Positions 12,277-64,000 of a DNA stretch of 64,000 bases are shown in pieces. The translations under genes and the position numbers were made by a program. The stretch covers positions 4,891 to 68,890 of the forward strand of contig JACPJN010000009.1 of NCBI GenBank assembly GCA_016187515.1, given 5' to 3'. Source of the DNA: Candidatus Uhrbacteria bacterium. Lineage in GTDB: Bacteria > Patescibacteriota > Patescibacteriia > GWA2-47-26. The stretch's first letter is position 1. Each line of letters opens with the position of its first letter. The notes under the pieces are model-generated. The model had not been told where the DNA came from. It did not search any database and saw only the letters and a list, made by a program, of their open reading frames with translations.

Positions 12277-12552
12277 ATGGAAGGCCTTAAAAATCTTATC
12301 AAAGGGCGCGTGAAAATCCGCAACAAGCATATCCATTCCGAGGCGCATTACTGGGCGGATGTGATTTCCAGCGCTCTGCATGAACGCAAACGTTTTGCCA
12401 TGTATCTTGGAATTATTAAAAAAATCGGCATTAAAAACGCGCAGAAAATTTTCGCCGAGGTAAAACAATCCGCCGCGAAAAATCCGGGTAAACTTTTTGT
12501 GTGGAAAGCCGGAAAAAATAATCCGCCGACTAAGTCCCCTCCCTTAAGATAA
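12277..12552 (+). CDS. Hypothetical small basic protein bracketed by two palindromic repeats
   Basis: ORF lies between repeat copies at 12224-12274 and 12534-12573. Its C-terminus (KSPPLR) is read from the repeat. No recognisable domain. Confidence 0.25.
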   Translation: MEGLKNLIKGRVKIRNKHIHSEAHYWADVISSALHERKRFAMYLGIIKKIGIKNAQKIFAEVKQSAAKNPGKLFVWKAGKNNPPTKSPPLR

Positions 12553-12577
12553 GGGAGGGGAGGGTGGGTTATGAACT

Positions 12578-20421: not shown

Positions 20422-20484
20422 GCACTATACCACAAACCTCCCCTTAAGGTAAGGGGAGGTAGGAGGGTTATGCAAATCTCATGA

Positions 20485-20938: not shown

Positions 20939-22369
<1,431 letters not shown>

Positions 22370-22808: not shown

Positions 22809-23867
22809 TTATTCTAATGCTGCTTTACCTGCTGATATCTCGGCTATCTCCCTAGTAATAGTAGCTTGCCGTGCCTGATTGAACGTAAAGGTTAAGTCAT
22901 CAATCATATCGCGCGCGGCGTCCGAGGCGTTTTTCATCGCCACCATGCGCGCGGAATGTTCAGAGGCGGATGATTCCAAAATTGCTTGGTACACTTGAAC
23001 TTCCACCAACCGCGGGAGCATACCGTCCAGCACTTCGGCCGGGGTCGGCTCGAAAAGGTAGGAGTAGGAGTAGTTCGCCGATCGTAACCCCTCCTCGCCT
23101 CCCCTTACCCTAAGGGGAGGAACCGATCGATCTCCCTCCCTTAAGGTAAGGGAGGGTTGGGGTGGGTTATGAATTCCGCCCGCCACGACTTCCTTCGTCA
23201 ACGGCAGCAACTGTTTCACATTCGGCACTTGGCGGATGGACGAAATAAAATCCGTGTAAGCAAGATACACGGCATCATACTTGCCAGCCACGAAATCCGT
23301 AATTGCAAGTTGCGCGACCGGCCGTACATCCGTAATCCGCGGATTATTGCTTAAATTATTAAATGTCGCGACAATATTCCAGCCCAGCCGTCGGGCAAGG
23401 TCAGTTCCCTTTTTGCCTACTGTCAGAAAGTCTATCTTAATAGCGTTTTTTGGCGTTGTAATAGCGTCGGACTGGCGATCATGCTTAGAAGCCATACGTA
23501 CGCCATCATTACGCCATGAGACGCTATTTAAGCGCACAAACTCTATTACTCGTTTTGCCATTTGCGCGTTGAAGCCGCCGCAAAGTCCGCGGTCGGACGA
23601 AACAAGTACCACAAGTGCGCGTTCCATTTTTTCCGGCTGCCGCAAAAGCGCGTGATGCGCCGCATCCGTCACTTTTGCCAGTTCCCCGACGGTTTCCCAA
23701 CCAAGATTTGCATACGGCCGCGTACCCAGCGTAGCATTTACCGCCCGGCGCATTTTGGACGCCGAAACCAGCTCCATGGCTTTGGTTATTTTTTTAGTGT
23801 TCGAAATACTCTTAATTCTCCTTTTAATAATTCTGGTACTCACGGGCATAGTTTGGGTAGAAGCCAT
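22809..23867 (-). CDS. atpG: F1Fo ATP synthase gamma subunit with an in-frame double repeat insertion
   Basis: Gamma N- and C-terminal helices. The insert at 23083-23171 encodes ...HNPPQPSLTLREGDRSVPPLRVRGGEEGLR.... Confidence 0.85.
   Translation of the reverse strand: MASTQTMPVSTRIIKRRIKSISNTKKITKAMELVSASKMRRAVNATLGTRPYANLGWETVGELAKVTDAAHHALLRQPEKMERALVVLVSSDRGLCGGFNAQMAKRVIEFVRLNSVSWRNDGVRMASKHDRQSDAITTPKNAIKIDFLTVGKKGTDLARRLGWNIVATFNNLSNNPRITDVRPVAQLAITDFVAGKYDAVYLAYTDFISSIRQVPNVKQLLPLTKEVVAGGIHNPPQPSLTLREGDRSVPPLRVRGGEEGLRSANYSYSYLFEPTPAEVLDGMLPRLVEVQVYQAILESSASEHSARMVAMKNASDAARDMIDDLTFTFNQARQATITREIAEISAGKAALE
23083..23171. repeat. Family-1 double element (reverse-complement unit plus forward unit), in frame in atpG
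   Basis: CGTAACCCCTCCTCGCCTCCCCTTACCCTAAGGGGAGG then CTCCCTCCCTTAAGGTAAGGGAGGGTTGGGGTGGGTTATG. Confidence 0.85.
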
Positions 23868-25818: not shown

Positions 25819-25902
25819 ATGTGCTGTGGTAAATCAAGTAAAGCAAGTAAATCAGGCAAGTCAAGCACTTGATTTACCTGTCTCGCTTGATTTACTCACA
25901 AT

Positions 25903-27635: not shown

Positions 27636-27644
27636 TGGATTGTA

Positions 27645-27722
27645 GTAAATCAGGTAAATCAAGCGAGACAAGTAAATCAAGCGCTTGATTTACTTAATTT
27701 ACTTGCTTTACTTGATTTACTT
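27645..27722. repeat. Family-4 GTAAATCAAG-word dyad spacer between atpI-like and atpB
   Basis: Same word set at 13039-13067 (after def), 25829-25897 (atpH/atpF spacer) and 38455-38531 (rpsM/rpmJ spacer). Confidence 0.8.
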
Positions 27723-27992
27723 TTTACTAATAATCTTCATCATTTTAAAATAAACCAACCACGAACTCACCACAAGCGAAATTCCAATTCCAACCAGCAG
27801 CAGCCACGGGCTGGTCTCAAATCTACGGTCCAGCCAGCGACCCCCCAGCGCCAACACCACGAGCGGCACTGCAATAGTATACCCCAATTCCCAAGCCAAA
27901 GAAAGGGCCGACCATGTTCCGTTTTCACGATCTCCCTCCCTTAAGTTAAGGGAGGGTTGGGGAGAGTTATGCTCAACTTTTTCATCTGTCAT
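27717..27992 (-). CDS. AtpZ/AtpI-like small membrane protein (atp operon leader gene) with an in-frame repeat
   Basis: Two TM helices (LSLAWELGYTIAVPLVVLALGG, WLLLVGIGISLVVSSWLVYF). Repeat 27931-27971 encodes [14 protein letters not shown] at the N-terminus. Confidence 0.4.
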   Translation of the reverse strand: MTDEKVEHNSPQPSLNLREGDRENGTWSALSLAWELGYTIAVPLVVLALGGRWLDRRFETSPWLLLVGIGISLVVSSWLVYFKMMKIISKK

Positions 27993-28180
27993 ATTCGTTG
28001 CATTCGTCCAACTATTCGTTGATTTGTACACAATTGAAAATTTATCCAGTATACCCCGCCGCCCGATTCCGGTCAAAGGTTTTTTATCAACACCCGCCCA
28101 TCACAATCCCCCTCCCTTAAGGTAAGGGAGGGCTGGGGTGGGTTATGTCGCTTATTTTAGCACAAATCCGCAATTTGCGC

Positions 28181-28281: not shown

Positions 28282-28503
28282 ATGAGAACTCACCAGCTGC
28301 CCGTATCGGTTCCTGGCGCCACGCACTTCGTCTGCATGGACGAAGGCGAGCGACCGCCGGTCGATGACGTGATCGCGTTCGCCCGCGCCAACGGCGCCAC
28401 GACCCGCGTGGACGGCGAGGAGATGCTTCTCGTCCGCCTGTACGACGAAGACACCTTCTGCGGGATGAACCGTCACTCCCTCAACGCCGGCCTCACGGAG
28501 TAG
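28282..28503 (+). CDS. Hypothetical 73-aa protein on a 65%-GC islet flanked by palindromic repeats
   Basis: AAGGAG RBS 7 nt upstream, strong GC3 bias, own consensus promoter. Flanked by repeat copies at 28106-28147 and 28582-28700. A T-tract follows at 28566-28576. Confidence 0.4.
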   Translation: MRTHQLPVSVPGATHFVCMDEGERPPVDDVIAFARANGATTRVDGEEMLLVRLYDEDTFCGMNRHSLNAGLTE

Positions 28504-28581
28504 TCGTCAGGCGACCACGGTCGCCCCGCTCCACCCGCTGCCTGTGTCCCAACACGCGCCGCGGGCTTTTTTTTATTCCAA

Positions 28582-28700
28582 TCCCCTCCCTTAAGGTAAG
28601 GGAGGGCTAGGGTGGGTTATGAGTCGTGCACCGTTCGTAACCCCTCCCATCCCTCCCTTCGCGAAGGGAGGGACCAACCTCCCCTTACCCTAAGGGGAGG
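28582..28700. repeat. Family-1 triple element (intergenic, downstream of the GC-rich islet)
   Basis: Forward unit, then a CCCTCCCTTCGCGAAGGGAGGG hairpin, then a reverse-complement unit. Confidence 0.8.
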
Positions 28701-30009
28701 AAATTGATCGTATCAATTTTTCAATCTGCCTCTCCCATCTAAACTCATGCACGACTCGCGCTTTGGCGTTTTGGCCAAGCTCGTAACGCAACGCGTCATC
28801 ACGCAAAAGTTGCACGGCCACGCGGGCAAACGCGGCCGGATCATTGGGATCAACCAGTGCTCCGGTTTTTCCATCCAAGATTGCTTCGGGTATTCCTCCG
28901 CTCCGTCCGCCAATTGATGGCTTACCAAACATTGCGGCTTCCAAAAAGACAATTCCAAATCCTTCTACATCCGCGCCGATCTGACGCGAAGGCATGACAA
29001 ACAGATCACAAAGCGCAAAATAAGCCGCCCGCTCTTCGTCGGACACCACACCGACAAAACGTACATAGGGTTGCAACCCCCCGCTCCCACCCCTCCCTCC
29101 CACCCCCTCTTGATCTCCCCCTCGGGTCCCGGCTGCGGCCGAGGATCCTCGATTCTCGAGAATCGGGACAGGGGGAGAGATTCCTCGGGCAGGGGAGGAA
29201 ATTGAATCGTTTCTCCCCCTCTCCGAGGGGGAGTTAGAGGGGGTCTGGAGTGCAGACTCCGCCACCATCCTCTGCAATCTCCCCAAATCCGGCCCATCTC
29301 CCGCCACCACATACACCACCTCCGGCACGTGCTGTAAAATCTCCGGCAACGCCTTAATCACCAAATCATGCCCTTTCCGCTCCACCACCCGCCCAAGCGT
29401 CAAAATCACACGCTTACCCACAAGCCCCAATTTCCGGCGCAACAATTCCACATCTTCCGTTTTCACATCAGTGGAAATCTCCGGACACGGATACACCACA
29501 ATCATCCGGTTGCGATTGCTCACGATCGTGAATTTTTGCAACCGCGCATTTTCAATGCAACGCTTGGTAAACTCGCTGTTGGCCACGATGAGCTTCGCGT
29601 GCGATAAAATCTTTTTTGTCAGCCACCGTTTCCGCCAGGACTTTTGCGCCATAAGCACATCCATGCCGTGCGTAAATACGACATACGGAACGCGCTTGCG
29701 CAACAGATACGCCACCGTGCCAAGGGGCAACACGTGTCCAACAAAAAGCAAGTCGTATTTTTGCTTCTTCAATACTCGCCGCACCGTGCGATATGTCTTA
29801 AACCACCGCGGCCAAACCCATCCCAACAATTCTCCTCCCCTTAAGGTAAGGGGAGGATGGGAGGGGTTATGCCAATGTGGGCCATCATCCGCAACCACAT
29901 CCACTCCATGCCCTTGCCTCTTCAACTCTTCAACCAACCCCCCATAATACGACGCCACTCCCCCATGTTGCGGCGGATACTCCAGGGTAATCAACAAAAT
30001 TTTTTTCAT
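28690..30009 (-). CDS. GT4-family glycosyltransferase with two in-frame repeat insertions
   Basis: GT-B N-terminus MKKILLITLEYPPQHGGV and C-terminal E..7E-like region. Inserts at 29834-29871 ([13 protein letters not shown]) and 29076-29246 (about 55 aa, Ser/Gly/Pro-rich). Confidence 0.75.
   Translation of the reverse strand: MKKILLITLEYPPQHGGVASYYGGLVEELKRQGHGVDVVADDGPHWHNPSHPPLTLRGGELLGWVWPRWFKTYRTVRRVLKKQKYDLLFVGHVLPLGTVAYLLRKRVPYVVFTHGMDVLMAQKSWRKRWLTKKILSHAKLIVANSEFTKRCIENARLQKFTIVSNRNRMIVVYPCPEISTDVKTEDVELLRRKLGLVGKRVILTLGRVVERKGHDLVIKALPEILQHVPEVVYVVAGDGPDLGRLQRMVAESALQTPSNSPSERGRNDSISSPARGISPPVPILENRGSSAAAGTRGGDQEGVGGRGGSGGLQPYVRFVGVVSDEERAAYFALCDLFVMPSRQIGADVEGFGIVFLEAAMFGKPSIGGRSGGIPEAILDGKTGALVDPNDPAAFARVAVQLLRDDALRYELGQNAKARVVHEFRWERQIEKLIRSISSP
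29076..29246. repeat. Composite GC hairpin cluster of about 170 bp (E-type CTCCCCCTC..GAGGGGGAGTTAGAGGGGGT units), in frame in the GT4 gene
   Basis: Three hairpins including CTCGATTCTCGAGAATCGGG. The same E-type tail is seen at 12224-12274, 41701-41750, 7548-7583 and 4397-4513. Confidence 0.75.
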
Positions 30010-30049
30010 AAATGCAAACTAAGGCGAAACTAACATACTTTACAGTATG

Positions 30050-30514
30050 TTAGTTTCGTCCGATTTCCGTGATCACATGATTCACTAATGTATCATTATC
30101 CTTAAAATAAAACGCGCCCTCAAAATTATTACCCTGTAAAAGAAGCGGCAGCCAATAACGATCATCTTTCCACATTTGATCAAACGGAATCTCGCGGTGC
30201 GTAAACCAACGCGGTTCCATCTCGCCGGTCTCACGCGGCTCACCTTTAAACTCCTGCGCGGAAAATACATGCACTTGCAAAAGTTCCGGATGTGTCGCAA
30301 TTTCAAAATCAAGCACCCCGCGATGCTGTACATCACGCGGCATAATCCCGGCCTCCTCTTTAACTTCTCGCACTGCGGCATCCGCAATCGCCTCCCCATC
30401 CTCCACATGTCCTCCAAACCCATTCCAAAATCCGGTCCCAAGCCCGCGCTTTTTCCGCCCCAGCAAAATGTGGGTGTCGTTATAAATCATGCACAAGGTA
30501 AGTATGGTTTTCAT
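30050..30514 (-). CDS. Nudix hydrolase
   Basis: Nudix box GGHVEDGEAIADAAVREVKEEAGI. Confidence 0.75.
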   Translation of the reverse strand: MKTILTLCMIYNDTHILLGRKKRGLGTGFWNGFGGHVEDGEAIADAAVREVKEEAGIMPRDVQHRGVLDFEIATHPELLQVHVFSAQEFKGEPRETGEMEPRWFTHREIPFDQMWKDDRYWLPLLLQGNNFEGAFYFKDNDTLVNHVITEIGRN

Positions 30515-30552: not shown

Positions 30553-30912
30553 CTAATCCGTAAGATTATCCAACTCCTCACGACTAAACCAGCGATATTC
30601 GTCATGATCGCCATCAAGTGCCGGCTCGCCTTCAATTTTCCCCACATAGGTCAATCGCACCACATGTCGGCCCGGCACCCGCAAAATATCTTGTGCCGCT
30701 ACCAACCGTGGCTCACCCACCAAATCAAGCCCCACCTCTTCCTTAATTTCACGCTTCAAATTCTCCAAAAGTGTCGTACCCGGTTCAATCCGCCCGCCCA
30801 CAATATCCCATTTTGCCCCGACCTCCGGATATTTTTCCGAAGAACGCCGTACCAAAAGATATTTCCCTTCCTTATTTTGCAACAATGCTTTTACGCCAAC
30901 TTGCAGTTCCAT
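30553..30912 (-). CDS. Nudix hydrolase
   Basis: Nudix box GGRIEPGTTLLENLKREIKEEVGL. Confidence 0.75.
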   Translation of the reverse strand: MELQVGVKALLQNKEGKYLLVRRSSEKYPEVGAKWDIVGGRIEPGTTLLENLKREIKEEVGLDLVGEPRLVAAQDILRVPGRHVVRLTYVGKIEGEPALDGDHDEYRWFSREELDNLTD

Positions 30913-30936
30913 AATGTTCTATGCTATAATTTTACA

Positions 30937-31160
30937 GAGCGTACCCCCACAGAGGACTTCGTCTCGAAAAGACCGGCCGTACCTTCGGGTATGGAGTAGG
31001 AAGCTAGTGGTCGCCGGTGCACCGACGGCCATGAAATTCAGAGGCAGCTCCCTTATGAGGTCTGGGTTCCACCTCTGATCGGGTAAAATGGAGATAGGGG
31101 TAAGTCCCGCCCCTCCATGGGTTCACGCTTGGCCTGGTGCGATGCACCAGGCCGTTACTT
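30937..31160 (+). ncRNA. Candidate structured small RNA of about 225 nt (unclassified)
   Basis: Extended -10 TGCTATAAT at 30922-30930. Terminal closing helix GCGUACCC (30939-30946) with GGGUUCACGC (31119-31128). 7-bp stem with UUCG tetraloop at 30977-30994. Hairpin AUGGAGAUAGGGG...CCCCUCCAU at 31088-31118. 10-bp terminator stem GGCCUGGUGC/GCACCAGGCC at 31131-31153 followed by a U-tract. No convincing ORF. Confidence 0.35.
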
Positions 31161-32012
31161 TTCCACTACAATCATTACTTTTCTCCCATTTAATACATCC
31201 CCGCCATTTCTCCCTCCGCTCGCGAGCGGAGGGATCCAATCATGCACCGCGTTCATCAGTACGGCCGGATCATACAAGTATGCTTCACCGCGCTTGGTGC
31301 CGGGATCATTAGTAATGATTTTACCATCTTTGGTCCAACCACGCACGATCAGCATATGATAGAGCGGCCCGGGCTGATGGAAGTAACGATTACCCAAAAG
31401 CTGTCCGGCCGCCGGAAGAATTACCGGCCGCCCTTGCGCTACCTCGCGTTTAATATCTTCAATCGTTGGATTATCGACTACGCGCACATTTTCATAACCA
31501 TAATACTCCCGTAAAATCCGCGCTGTCTCCGCCGCATCCGTATCTTTCCAATAGCCAAATGTCTTGGTCTCCCAGTCCGCAATCGCGTAAATCTCCTGAT
31601 CCGCGGACTCCCGAGTAAAAGTATGCCCCTTAAAAAACGCATCCACCATCATCACCGCCGCTTCCTCGCAAGCGTCTTCATGTAGCGCATCCCAATTTGC
31701 AAACGGCGCCTGGCTCGTAAACGGCACGGCTAAATTAAACTCCGCGGGCAAATCCCCCCGCGCAGAAAGTTCCATACTTGGAACTATGGAACTTTTTTGG
31801 GGAAAATCATTTTGTGGGTTTGTTGTAATAGGTGACGCCGTTTTCGCGTCGCGGATTTCCAGCGACGCCTGCATCTTCTCATGGGTCTGCGCCTCCGGCA
31901 CACCTCGCTTCTCCCACTTCTCTGCCACATACCCCGCCATTCTCCCCCGATACGCGAACGACCCCGCCGCCACTGCAATTAAAACTATCCCCGCCCAAAA
32001 ACGAAACTTCAT
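31155..32012 (-). CDS. Hypothetical secreted/membrane-anchored protein, possibly a papain/C39-like peptidase
   Basis: N-terminal hydrophobic anchor. Cys in DACEEAAVMMVDAF and a downstream His (weak resemblance to C39-like peptidases). Contains an in-frame GTTCCATA palindrome copy (KSSIVPSMEL). Confidence 0.35.
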   Translation of the reverse strand: MKFRFWAGIVLIAVAAGSFAYRGRMAGYVAEKWEKRGVPEAQTHEKMQASLEIRDAKTASPITTNPQNDFPQKSSIVPSMELSARGDLPAEFNLAVPFTSQAPFANWDALHEDACEEAAVMMVDAFFKGHTFTRESADQEIYAIADWETKTFGYWKDTDAAETARILREYYGYENVRVVDNPTIEDIKREVAQGRPVILPAAGQLLGNRYFHQPGPLYHMLIVRGWTKDGKIITNDPGTKRGEAYLYDPAVLMNAVHDWIPPLASGGRNGGDVLNGRKVMIVVEK

Positions 32013-38445: not shown

Positions 38446-38537
38446 ATCTTGTTGAGCGAGGCAAGCGAGACAAGTAAATTAAGCGCGACAAGCTTGTGAT
38501 TTACCTAATTTACTTGCTTTACTTGATTTACTTTCAA

Positions 38538-51077: not shown

Positions 51078-51860
51078 CTACATCTTCCCCGTCCTGGCGT
51101 ATCGCCGCTTCCATGCTAAAAACTTCTTCCACATCAATACATCCTTATGCCACCCGGTTGGATCTTCCAGAAATGCTTGATGAATCTCGTACATTTCGCG
51201 CGACACCAGACCGCGCTTCAAAAGATATGCGATCCACTCACGCCGTGTGTAAAGCGCGTCGTATGTCACACCGCGCCGCTTCAGCTTCTCGACAAATGGT
51301 CGGTTCTTTGGCCACCATGGATTCCAAAGCGTCATCGTATGTTTTACAATCACACCATCACTTTTGCAATCGCGGATCGCCTTGAGAATGGTGCCGCCAA
51401 ATCCGATCACATCATCAACTAGCACTGCCCGCGCGCCCGTTTTGTATTCTCCCTCCACAATCCGCCGTCGGAGCGTCTTCTTCCGCCCCTTGTTCAGGTA
51501 CGCAAATGGAATGCCGGTCTTGAGCGACAGCGCCAACGCCATCGGAATCCCCGCCATCGGAATCCCCACAATCAAATCAACGCCTCGTAAATCAATACCT
51601 CTCCTCCCCCGCCCACCCGGTGGAAAAAAAGTTCCATACTTGGAACTATGGAACTTTTTTGCTTTGGGACCGTTGCGGAGTTGATATTGTTTTAGGATCT
51701 TCGCAAGCTCTTCCACGAACACGCGAAATTCTTTCGGATGCGAATATAACGCCCGACTGTCATTAAAAAACGGCACCAGCGCGCCAGTGGTTGACTGCAC
51801 AAACGGCCCCACATGAATCGGGACTTTTGAAATCGCCTTTAGCGCTCGTAAATTTGCCAT
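51078..51860 (-). CDS. Phosphoribosyltransferase (type I PRTase, OPRT-like) with an in-frame GTTCCATA palindrome
   Basis: PRPP-binding motif VLVDDVIGFGGTI. Repeat 51625-51660 encodes KKFHSSKYGTF. Confidence 0.55.
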   Translation of the reverse strand: MANLRALKAISKVPIHVGPFVQSTTGALVPFFNDSRALYSHPKEFRVFVEELAKILKQYQLRNGPKAKKFHSSKYGTFFPPGGRGRRGIDLRGVDLIVGIPMAGIPMALALSLKTGIPFAYLNKGRKKTLRRRIVEGEYKTGARAVLVDDVIGFGGTILKAIRDCKSDGVIVKHTMTLWNPWWPKNRPFVEKLKRRGVTYDALYTRREWIAYLLKRGLVSREMYEIHQAFLEDPTGWHKDVLMWKKFLAWKRRYARTGKM

Positions 51861-52748: not shown

Positions 52749-52783
52749 AAAAAGTTCCATACTTGGAACTATGGAACTTTTTT
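52749..52783. repeat. Family-2 palindrome, intergenic copy with A5/T7 flanks (bidirectional terminator-like)
   Basis: AAAAAGTTCCATACTTGGAACTATGGAACTTTTTTT between the PRTase and the TrpR-like gene. Confidence 0.8.
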
Positions 52784-53392: not shown

Positions 53393-53520
53393 ACGCGTTA
53401 TACTTTACTATAAATTAACCTCCAATTCACAGTACTAGGATCTCATCATGTCCCACAAAACTATAATATCACGGAATCGCCAAACGCAAAAGTTCCATAG
53501 TTCCAAGTATGGAACTTTTT

Positions 53521-55006: not shown

Positions 55007-55236
55007 GTGCCACAGCGCCGAATGGCATGCACGGCGGACCCAGAGGCGGGCCTGCCGGCCACTTAGTCCTTTCCCCAAATCCGTCATCTCGAACGCAGTG
55101 AGAGATCTCTTTACCTTCGCATGCCACGCGGAAGAGATTCCTCGCTAGCGCTCGGAATGACGATTAACCGCTCCTTCGTCAACCCACCCGATCGTGCGTC
55201 ATGCGCGATCGGGTGAATTATTTTATACAAGGAATT

Positions 55237-55318
55237 CCCTCCCTTAAGGTAAGGGAGGGTAGGGTGGGTTATGAATTTCTCGTAACCCCTCCTCGCCTCC
55301 CCTTACCCTAAGGGGAGG
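55237..55318. repeat. Family-1 double element (forward plus reverse complement), intergenic after the LOG-like gene
   Basis: Same sequence as the atpG copy, in the opposite arrangement. Confidence 0.8.
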
Positions 55319-55321
55319 AAA

Positions 55322-62750: not shown

Positions 62751-64000
62751 CTAAAACCCGACTAATTGCACCTCCTCTTTAAGTTCAATGTCAAATTTAT
62801 CGCGAACGCGCTTTTTAATCTCCTCCGCCAGCGCCACAATATCATGGGCGGAAGCGCCGCCAAAATTCACCAGCGATAAGGAATGCTTCGGCGAAATACC
62901 CGCCTCACCCCGGCGGTACCCTTTTGAAAATCCGGCGCTTTGCAGCAGACAAGCGGCCGAAACTTTCACTTTTTCCTCCCCCCTTAAGGTAAGGGGGGAT
63001 TGAGGGGGGTTATGCACCTTCTCATCCTCCACTGTCCAATACCACGGATCAGGACACTCTTGTATCATGCCCTGTAGTTTTTCAAATTGATCACGGGACA
63101 CGATGGGATTCATGAAAAACGATCCGGCGGTTTTAAAACTTTCATACTCCGGCATAATCACGTATCCTTTCCGCGCGCGAATTTCAATTACGGCCTGGCG
63201 CACTTCGGCAAGAGAAGGTGAAATTTCATAACTCCCCCTCCCCCCTCTTACCTTAAGAGGGGGAATCGATGGATCTCCCTCCCTTAGGTTAAGGGAGGGC
63301 GAGGGAGGGTTACGAAAATACTCCGTCAAATCATGATAAGCAATGAGCGGCGCTCCACTGGGCGTCAGTTCCAATGTTACTTGCGTAATAATATAACGCC
63401 CTTTCATTTTTTTAAAAATACTGGCGCGGTATCCAAATTCACACCCGGCATTATCAAAAGTTACACGCGCCCCGTCTTTAGAATCAATTGCTTCAACACT
63501 TCGGATCACCGTGTCCACACTCTGCCCGTAAGCCCCGATATTCTGCACCGGCGCGGCGCCCACCGTGCCCGGAATTCCGGATAAACACTCAATTCCGGCC
63601 AAATTGCGCTCCACACACTGCGCCACTAACTCATCCCAAATTTCTCCCGCGCCAGCCGTGACTAAGGCGCGATTTTCTTCAATGCGCCACTCCACCCCCT
63701 TAATCTGCGTCATAATCGCCAGACCATCAAACCCCTTGTCGCTGACCAGAATATTACTTCCCCCGCCAAACATGAAAAATGGAATCGCGCACTCGTGAGC
63801 CGCCGTAATCGCGCGCACCAGGTCGTCGGCCGTGCGCGCCACAAAAAAATACCTGGCCGCCCCGCCGATCTTAAAGGTAGTAAATGGGGCTAAGAGTATA
63901 TCATGCTCTAATTCTTCTCCTAAGCGCTCCTTTAATGCGCGATGTGCTGATTCCGCAGATGCACTAGGTGCCGCAGATGACGCAGATGATTGATCATCTG
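62751..64000 (-). CDS. murB: UDP-N-acetylenolpyruvoylglucosamine reductase MurB (frame open to the window end; N-terminal S/A-rich extension or fusion)
   Basis: FAD-binding N-terminus [26 protein letters not shown] continues upstream of the GTG at 63842 with no stop up to 64000. Two in-frame repeat inserts at 62985-63014 and 63227-63314. Confidence 0.75.

Follow-up and report, generated by a model that had tools for sequence, protein, structure and literature searches.

An inserted intergenic element with the appearance of a small RNA gene in a conserved operon of Patescibacteria

The operon and its lineage-specific insertion

The stretch of DNA analyzed here (64 kb, referred to below as the window) is part of a 202-kb, Parcubacteria-like contig of the Patescibacteria, and nearly all genes from ~14 kb to 64 kb of the window are found on the minus strand. 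Here, the genes of a C39-like peptidase and of a Nudix hydrolase are separated by an intergenic gap of 242 nt. The features that define the locus are:

30553–30912, minus strand: Nudix hydrolase gene, with start codon and N-terminus exactly as in relatives
30932–30935, plus strand: left TTAC copy of a 4-bp direct repeat, bordering the insertion
30936–31154, strand unassigned: lineage-specific insertion of 219 bp, comprising the candidate RNA body and a GC hairpin
31155–31158, plus strand: right TTAC copy of the 4-bp direct repeat, the complement of which contains the C39 stop codon TAA
31155–32012, minus strand: C39-like peptidase gene, with a conserved C-terminus and a stop codon that abuts the insertion

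In agreement with the sequence-only reading, i.e., an earlier annotation of this locus, the gap holds no credible open reading frame (ORF). Stops are found in all six frames, and a search with the concatenated six-frame translation against ~5.8 billion predicted proteins gave nothing at E ≤ 10, which also argues against a widespread repeat that is occasionally translated by gene callers. A coding remnant or a lost N-terminal exon was rejected because the Nudix N-terminus is complete, all six frames are stopped and no protein matches.

Relatives were gathered via the C39-like protein and the Nudix protein, and synteny was compared over 80 loci from GTDB, 2 from JGI and ~25 retrieved by exact protein match; the element is absent from all of these syntenic relatives. 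The order C39-Nudix-(Nudix)-GT4 glycosyltransferase is kept in Uhrbacteria-like loci (L091–L094 and L105–L109), in Parcubacteria GW2011_GWC2_45_7 (L095–L098) and in L099/L115, and in these the C39 stop is found 1–18 nt from the Nudix ATG. In the other Nudix relatives (L104 and L110/L111) the upstream gaps are 9–21 nt, so that over all of these groups the gap in front of the Nudix ATG spans 1–21 nt, independent of whether the upstream gene encodes the C39-like peptidase (three lineages), an EamA-like protein (L104) or a Zip-like protein (L110/L111). The Nudix N-terminus, MELQVGVK, is invariant in all relatives and intact in the window, as is the C39 C-terminus. These short gaps, together with the intact termini on both sides, identify the 219 bp as a lineage-specific insertion. 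As judged from these comparisons, the extra DNA is a clean intergenic insertion of ~219 bp, specific to this lineage.

The junctions can be reconstructed at nucleotide level. Deletion of positions 30936–31154 and of one TTAC copy leaves a 19-nt spacer, TAA-AATTATAGCATAGAACATT-ATG, and the reconstructed empty-site allele reads GAAAAGTAAAATTATAGCA. This reconstructed site contains one TTAC copy and aligns with the spacer of L095. In gene sense, the L095 spacer is ...TAA-T-TTATAGCA-GTTACGCAT-ATG and that of the window is ...AAGTAA-(insert)-GTAA-AA-TTATAGCA-TAGAACATT-ATG, where the 8-mer TTATAGCA is offset from the Nudix ATG by 9 nt in both cases. The chance of an identity of at least 4 nt at both junctions is estimated to ~0.5%.

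The region is 100% identical in six short Logan contigs (L001–L006), and the element is identical across at least 11 samples; because of this identity the Logan copies are uninformative on conservation or selection. The same six contigs break at a copy, at ~29845, of the CCCTCCCTTAAGGTAAGGGAGGG palindromic repeat family described below.

Other observations concern the neighboring genes of the operon. The Nudix protein encoded at 30553–30912 (minus strand) consists of 119 residues, compared to 126–161 (mostly 131–140) in ~120 close relatives, and is devoid of the conserved C-terminal "LDxYFKELL…" tail, so that this lineage has a C-terminally truncated version of the gene. The GT4 glycosyltransferase (28690–30009, minus strand) is longer than in relatives (439 versus 366–407 residues) and harbors a low-complexity insert of ~60 residues (…PSNSPSERGRNDSISSPARG…GGRGGSGG…), which interrupts the Glycos_transf_1 domain match so that it falls into two pieces. 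At 30025–30058 (minus strand), a palindrome of 15 perfectly paired bp, CGAAACTAACATACT-GTAA-AGTATGTTAGTTTCG, begins in the last codons of a second Nudix gene and takes up the 40-nt spacer that precedes the GT4 gene. In L099/L115 the second Nudix and GT4 genes overlap without any spacer, and this palindrome is evidently a second lineage-specific expansion within the same operon.

Border signals and folding of the insert

The sequence-only reading described the gap as a candidate for a structured RNA that extends from a promoter to a terminator. The following signals are found at its borders:

30901–30906, plus strand: weak −35-like TTGCAG (3/6 matches, 18-nt spacer), the reverse complement of Nudix codons 2–4
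30922–30930, plus strand: extended −10-like box TGCTATAAT, which on the opposite strand is the ancestral Nudix 5′ spacer, ATTATAGCA
31131–31164, plus strand: terminator-like element, i.e., a 10-bp GC-rich stem with a 3-nt loop, followed by GTTACTTTTCC

The −10-like box and the terminator-like hairpin are indeed present on the plus strand, ~224 nt apart. The former is a perfect TGnTATAAT box located 6 nt from the edge of the insert, and TGNTATAAT occurs three times in the window, where 1.3 occurrences are expected. The −35-like TTGCAG is antisense to the invariant Nudix codons E-L-Q and falls below the threshold of the promoter scan, which therefore did not report it. The insert-free spacer of L095 carries TTATAGCA at the equal offset, i.e., an antisense box TGCTATAAA; at L095:3332–3349 this TG-extended −10-like sequence is found with TTGAAG 18 nt upstream, and the reconstructed empty site of the window carries an antisense box of this kind as well. 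Because the antisense box is found in a locus without the insert, the antisense promoter-like sequence predates the insertion, and it may be a by-product of an AT-rich spacer combined with the invariant M-E-L-Q codons.

The terminator-like hairpin is formed by a perfect 10-bp stem at 31131–31153 (10–11 bp by the terminator criterion, with 8 GC pairs), displays a z score of −5.45, with none of 200 shuffles folding as well, and is the strongest terminator-like site in the 14–34 kb region of the window. The hallmark of an intrinsic terminator, a stem-loop rich in GC with a U-rich tract right behind it, is found on the plus strand only. There, the U-tract arises from the final C39 codons (E-K-stop) read in complement, while the minus strand continues behind the stem with AAGCGUGAACCC and has no U-tract. 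The promoter scan found no promoter-like site on the minus strand of the insert. Both promoter-like boxes, TTGCAG and TGCTATAAT, as well as the U-tract belong to the pre-existing flanks; the contribution of the insert is limited to the body and the hairpin. As these boxes and the U-tract are older than the insertion, the proposed promoter-to-terminator unit is at least partly fortuitous.

The predicted secondary-structure elements of the RNA body are:

30938–30965, plus strand: 5′ strand of interrupted closing helices, pairing with 31091–31129 in the minimum free energy (MFE) and centroid folds
30977–30994, plus strand: 7-bp hairpin with a cUUCGg tetraloop, CCGTACC-TTCG-GGTATGG, with one G-U pair; −10.5 kcal/mol
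31007–31032, plus strand: 7+3-bp hairpin GUGGUCG.CCG/CGG.CGGCCAU, a near-palindrome; z −2.08, with 7 of 200 shuffles equal
31038–31078, plus strand: 7-bp stem UCAGAGG/CCUCUGA with a 27-nt loop; z −1.27, ordinary
31088–31118, plus strand: imperfect hairpin AUGGAG...CUCCAU; z −1.53, centroid unstable

All of the motifs that had been listed for the region are found where they were placed, except that the hairpin at 31088–31118, given as 13 bp, is composed of only 6 bp (AUGGAG/CUCCAU) and 3 inner G-C pairs. In the MFE fold this hairpin competes with a long-range pairing to 30946–30965. The helix that closes the 5′ and 3′ ends consists of GCGU/ACGC and ACCC/GGGU, and it is without comparative support. 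Only the terminator hairpin and, marginally, the UUCG hairpin (z −2.94, 1 of 200 shuffles) exceed chance; the other three hairpins are found at z −1.3 to −2.1.

The full 224 nt of the plus strand display a z score of −2.8, but for the 193-nt core (30937–31129), i.e., without the terminator, the value is only −0.78 and 46 of 200 shuffles are as stable, from which it follows that the significance of the full-length fold is carried by the terminator hairpin. A window-wide comparison, in which the MFE was regressed on GC content over 3,192 windows (194 nt each, both strands included), placed the core ~0.6 SD below the GC-corrected expectation, and those windows that include the terminator rank at about the top 8%. 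The minus strand folds at least as well (224 nt, −97.3 kcal/mol, z −3.96) and forms a continuous 9-bp helix that uses two G-U pairs. The G-U counts, 5 versus 8 of 58 pairs, indicate no strand preference. On the minus strand, the UUCG loop becomes CGAA and three G-U pairs become A-C mismatches. In these models, the folding energy of the core is thus not clearly below that of shuffles or background, the property by which a conserved structured non-coding RNA was to be recognized, and the claim of a structured RNA is not supported for the core, the stability of which is matched by shuffles and by the remainder of the window.

Searches for known families are in line with this result. With Rfam 15, no family, HEARO/IS605-associated RNAs included, reached its gathering score anywhere in the window, and when the cutoff was set to E ≤ 10 and the filters were relaxed, the region 30800–31300 returned only noise (E 0.9–5), including TB9Cs3H2 and FuFi-1. 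The best near-match is skipping-rope (RF02924), which resembles the element in a GAGAU...GGGG...CCCC hairpin (31049–31122, plus strand) but scores 15.6 bits compared to a gathering score of 36.7 (E 0.9 in the 501-nt search), a level consistent with chance. ARAGORN found no tRNA or tmRNA, and 6S, SRP, RNase P, tmRNA, riboswitches and ykkC gave no Rfam match at E ≤ 10 in the region, which bears out the earlier statement that hallmarks of tmRNA, RNase P, SRP and riboswitches are missing. The Rfam scan that had been proposed as a check consequently assigns the element to no family. Motifs resembling SRP helix 8, the CR-I/P4 region of RNase P, group II domain V or a T-loop were missing or misordered when inspected by eye, with Rfam negative, and were rejected.

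Neither were additional copies or homologues found. A blastn search of phage and plasmid collections gave no match, and exact scans of viral contigs for four sub-motifs gave only chance matches in coding sequence. A covariance model (R1), for which the element's own sequence and centroid fold were the sole input, was used together with blastn over ~0.7 Mb of Patescibacteria DNA (~100–115 loci), and returned only the element itself. No second copy is present in the 64-kb window as seen by blastn, k-mers and the covariance model, i.e., there is no shared 13-mer, and no homologue with covarying pairs was found in any of the collections searched. The second check that had been proposed, conservation of the hairpins in relatives, meets the same outcome, as the whole element is missing from every syntenic relative, where the gaps are 1–21 nt. 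A literature search on structured or non-coding RNAs of Patescibacteria found nothing relevant.

Origin and possible function of the element

From the above discussion, a recent, single-copy insertion of ~219 bp between the first two genes of an operon that is conserved in Patescibacteria (C39-like peptidase, Nudix, Nudix, GT4) emerges as the most plausible event, and the reading that we prefer, with a probability of about 45%, is that of an inserted element without dedicated RNA function, the sRNA-like look of which is largely fortuitous. The insertion would have been transposition-like or mediated by microhomology, where the TTAC flanks represent either a 4-bp duplication or the microhomology itself, and the most likely origin would be a small non-autonomous or foreign element, or illegitimate recombination. 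The segment brought with it, apart from a strong GC hairpin, just a few hairpins of ordinary stability, and it landed with the TGCTATAAT-like antisense spacer, which is older, on one side and the T-rich complement of the final C39 codons on the other. Landing at this position explains why the plus strand reads as a promoter, 224 nt and a terminator. Any plus-strand transcription from ~30937 would end at the hairpin and U-tract and yield an orphan antisense RNA of ~225 nt; the best reading of the segment is that of an orphan inserted element that may be transcribed as such a plus-strand RNA, no evidence of a conserved structure having been found. Because the hairpin is devoid of a U-tract on the minus strand and the insert contains no promoter-like site there, the operon is probably still read through, such that the element would be carried in the operon mRNA as a 220-nt intercistronic spacer, in the orientation that leaves the operon unbroken. 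Other small palindromic repeat families are found in this genome, some inside ORFs, which makes small inserted elements plausible here. Several observations count against this reading: the ends of the insert have no terminal inverted repeats, and no second copy occurs in the 64 kb, so that nothing assigns it to a known class of mobile elements. As to the 4-bp repeat, microhomology is an alternative to a target-site duplication.

The same set of features that is rationalized above as partly fortuitous also fits a real plus-strand RNA gene. It is possible, albeit rather unlikely, that the locus encodes a genuine orphan sRNA that starts at ~30937 at the TG-extended −10 box and ends at the intrinsic terminator at ~31160, and acts as a cis-antisense or trans-acting RNA. 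Such an RNA would be perfectly complementary to the C39-Nudix intercistronic spacer of the mRNA. In cis, it could, for example, form a duplex that is processed and thereby uncouples the two cistrons, while in trans it could act through its C-rich stretches. The rare and perfect −10 box next to the insert edge, the leading rank of the terminator-like site with its plus-only U-tract, and the cUUCGg hairpin, the G-U pair of which is sensible on the plus strand only, would all be explained. The same applies to the GC skew of the plus strand, which is +0.06 in the insert compared to −0.30 in the flanking genes, to the stopped reading frames and to the retention of an element, identical in all samples, in a compact genome. 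However, both the promoter boxes and the U-tract are older than the insertion, the core folds no better than chance and the minus strand equally well or better, no search returned a homologue or covariation, and the identical population copies are silent on selection. The lineage-specific sRNA put forward earlier is a possible, sequence-based proposal.

Should a plus-strand RNA indeed be expressed and have a function, it would join the very few sRNAs that have been proposed for Patescibacteria, and its gene would have been assembled from an inserted body and pre-existing promoter and U-tract sequence. A related scenario, to which only a small likelihood is assigned, is that of a self-contained, recently mobilized sRNA cassette, consisting of a structured RNA body and the terminator hairpin, that generated the 4-bp target duplication and was activated by capturing the pre-existing antisense promoter-like box; if true, it would offer a snapshot of the de novo birth of an sRNA gene, or of sRNA mobility, in an ultra-small bacterium.

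Equally improbable is a function on the opposite strand, i.e., as a leader or intercistronic cis element within the operon mRNA. Here, the hairpin that starts right behind the C39 stop codon would serve as a 3′ stabilizer or as a terminator without U residues, and the 200 nt downstream would form a structured leader for the two Nudix genes, possibly responsive to a ligand or protein. The slightly better minus-strand fold with its 9-bp helix, the minus-strand orientation of all neighboring genes and the second palindrome at the Nudix2/GT4 junction (30025–30058) are consistent with such a role. Against it stand the missing U-tract, the lack of a promoter-like site in the insert and of a Shine-Dalgarno sequence before the Nudix ATG, the conversion of UUCG to CGAA with three A-C mismatches in place of G-U pairs, and the silence of all Rfam riboswitch models, including ykkC, at E ≤ 10; in addition, the 1–18 nt spacers of the relatives imply that there was no ancestral regulatory leader.

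A divergent housekeeping RNA (6S-like, SRP, RNase P or tmRNA-like) missed by the Rfam models is highly improbable: RNAs of Patescibacteria are often divergent, and the length of ~190–225 nt, the paired 5′ and 3′ ends and the stand-alone orientation do resemble such genes, but there is no family match at E ≤ 10 even with relaxed filters, ARAGORN is negative, and the conservation expected of such an RNA is not seen in ~0.7 Mb from ~100 Patescibacteria loci, the insertion itself being recent. The specific suggestion of a 6S-like RNA is not supported: the element is comparable to 6S RNA (RF00013) in length and in its paired ends, but is not conserved and gives no match to the 6S model at E ≤ 10. 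Furthermore, neither the MFE nor the centroid fold has the rod shape of 6S RNA, in which a large central bubble separates the closing stem from a long apical stem; both show a multi-branch junction that bears three internal hairpins, and the apical stem is just 7+3 bp.

Comparison with known elements and other repeats in the window

When compared to known systems, the element looks as if it would act, if at all, like an orphan cis-antisense sRNA, while in its origin it resembles the small insertion elements that are non-autonomous. At most, it adds a single-genome example to a known kind. With orphan, lineage-specific sRNA genes it shares the arrangement of a ~225-nt unit with a −10 box, a GC hairpin and U-tract and no ORF, located opposite to an operon transcript, but it differs from these in showing no conservation and no better-than-chance fold, and in having a promoter and U-tract that belong to the older flank.

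The likeness to miniature inverted-repeat transposable elements (MITEs) and to palindrome-associated elements derived from IS200/IS605 is seen in the length of ~220 bp, the non-coding nature, the hairpin, the location in a spacer and the short direct repeat. As for a MITE with terminal inverted repeats (TIR-type), TTAC is found on both sides in the manner of a target-site duplication, but the left end, AGAGCGTACCCCC, displays no similarity to the reverse complement of the right end, CGGCCTGGTGCAT, and the sole 5′/3′ complementarity of the insert is subterminal on the right side. Elements of the MITE, PATE and REP types are characteristically multi-copy; within the 64-kb window, which is part of a 202-kb contig, one copy of the present element is found. 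The sequence TTAC is the classical target of IS608. Unlike in IS200/IS605-derived elements, where one TnpA recognizes similar subterminal hairpins at both ends, the left-end hairpins (GAGGAC... and CCGTACC-TTCG-GGTATGG) differ from the right-end GGCCTGGTGC hairpin. No transposase is found in the vicinity of the element.

The locus is also of cautionary value. An insertion beside an AT-rich spacer and Lys/Glu codons can mimic the succession of a promoter, hairpins and a terminator, and a significant folding z score can rest wholly on one terminator hairpin.

Several repeat families are found elsewhere in the window, and a relation of the element to its abundant palindromic repeat families was considered and rejected. 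The most frequent is a palindromic family of ~40 nt, CCCTCCCTTAAGGTAAGGGAGGG(C)TAGGGTGGGTTATG, with at least 11 sites in 64 kb:

28579–28621, 28109–28147, 23134–23171, 55237–55273, 12535–12573 and 63277–63312: near-full copies of the CCCTCCCTTAAGGTAAGGGAGGG family
27934–27956, 20441–20455, 22204–22218, 29838–29852 and 62981–62995: partial copies of the CCCTCCCTTAAGGTAAGGGAGGG family

This REP/RPE-like family resembles the element in that it consists of GC-rich perfect palindromes at gene ends of the same genome, but the element is five times longer, is single-copy and has no sequence in common with it. Diverged copies are found in two other Patescibacteria contigs (L114:1345–1386 and L115:13182–13225). 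Some copies reside inside long ORFs, i.e., the GT4 gene, the ORFs at 62751–63842, 20939–22357 and 22809–23867, and an alaS-like ORF of L114, which is reminiscent of the in-frame insertion of Rickettsia palindromic elements. The most stable folds for their GC content in the window, at about −3.4 SD, are those of the gaps 28477–28689 and 55063–55321, which consist largely of inverted CCCTCCC...GGGAGGG repeat copies and not of a unique RNA gene.

AT-rich palindromic arrays of GTAAATCAAG / CTTGATTTAC units are found at three intergenic spots (25829–25895, 27644–27721 and 38462–38525) and constitute a second repeat family, which may be operator- or terminator-like in nature. An identical 18-nt hairpin, AGTTCCAAGTATGGAACT, followed by a T-run, is found at three gene ends (51630–51647, 52753–52770 and 53499–53516), and has the look of a common terminator or of a REP-like unit.
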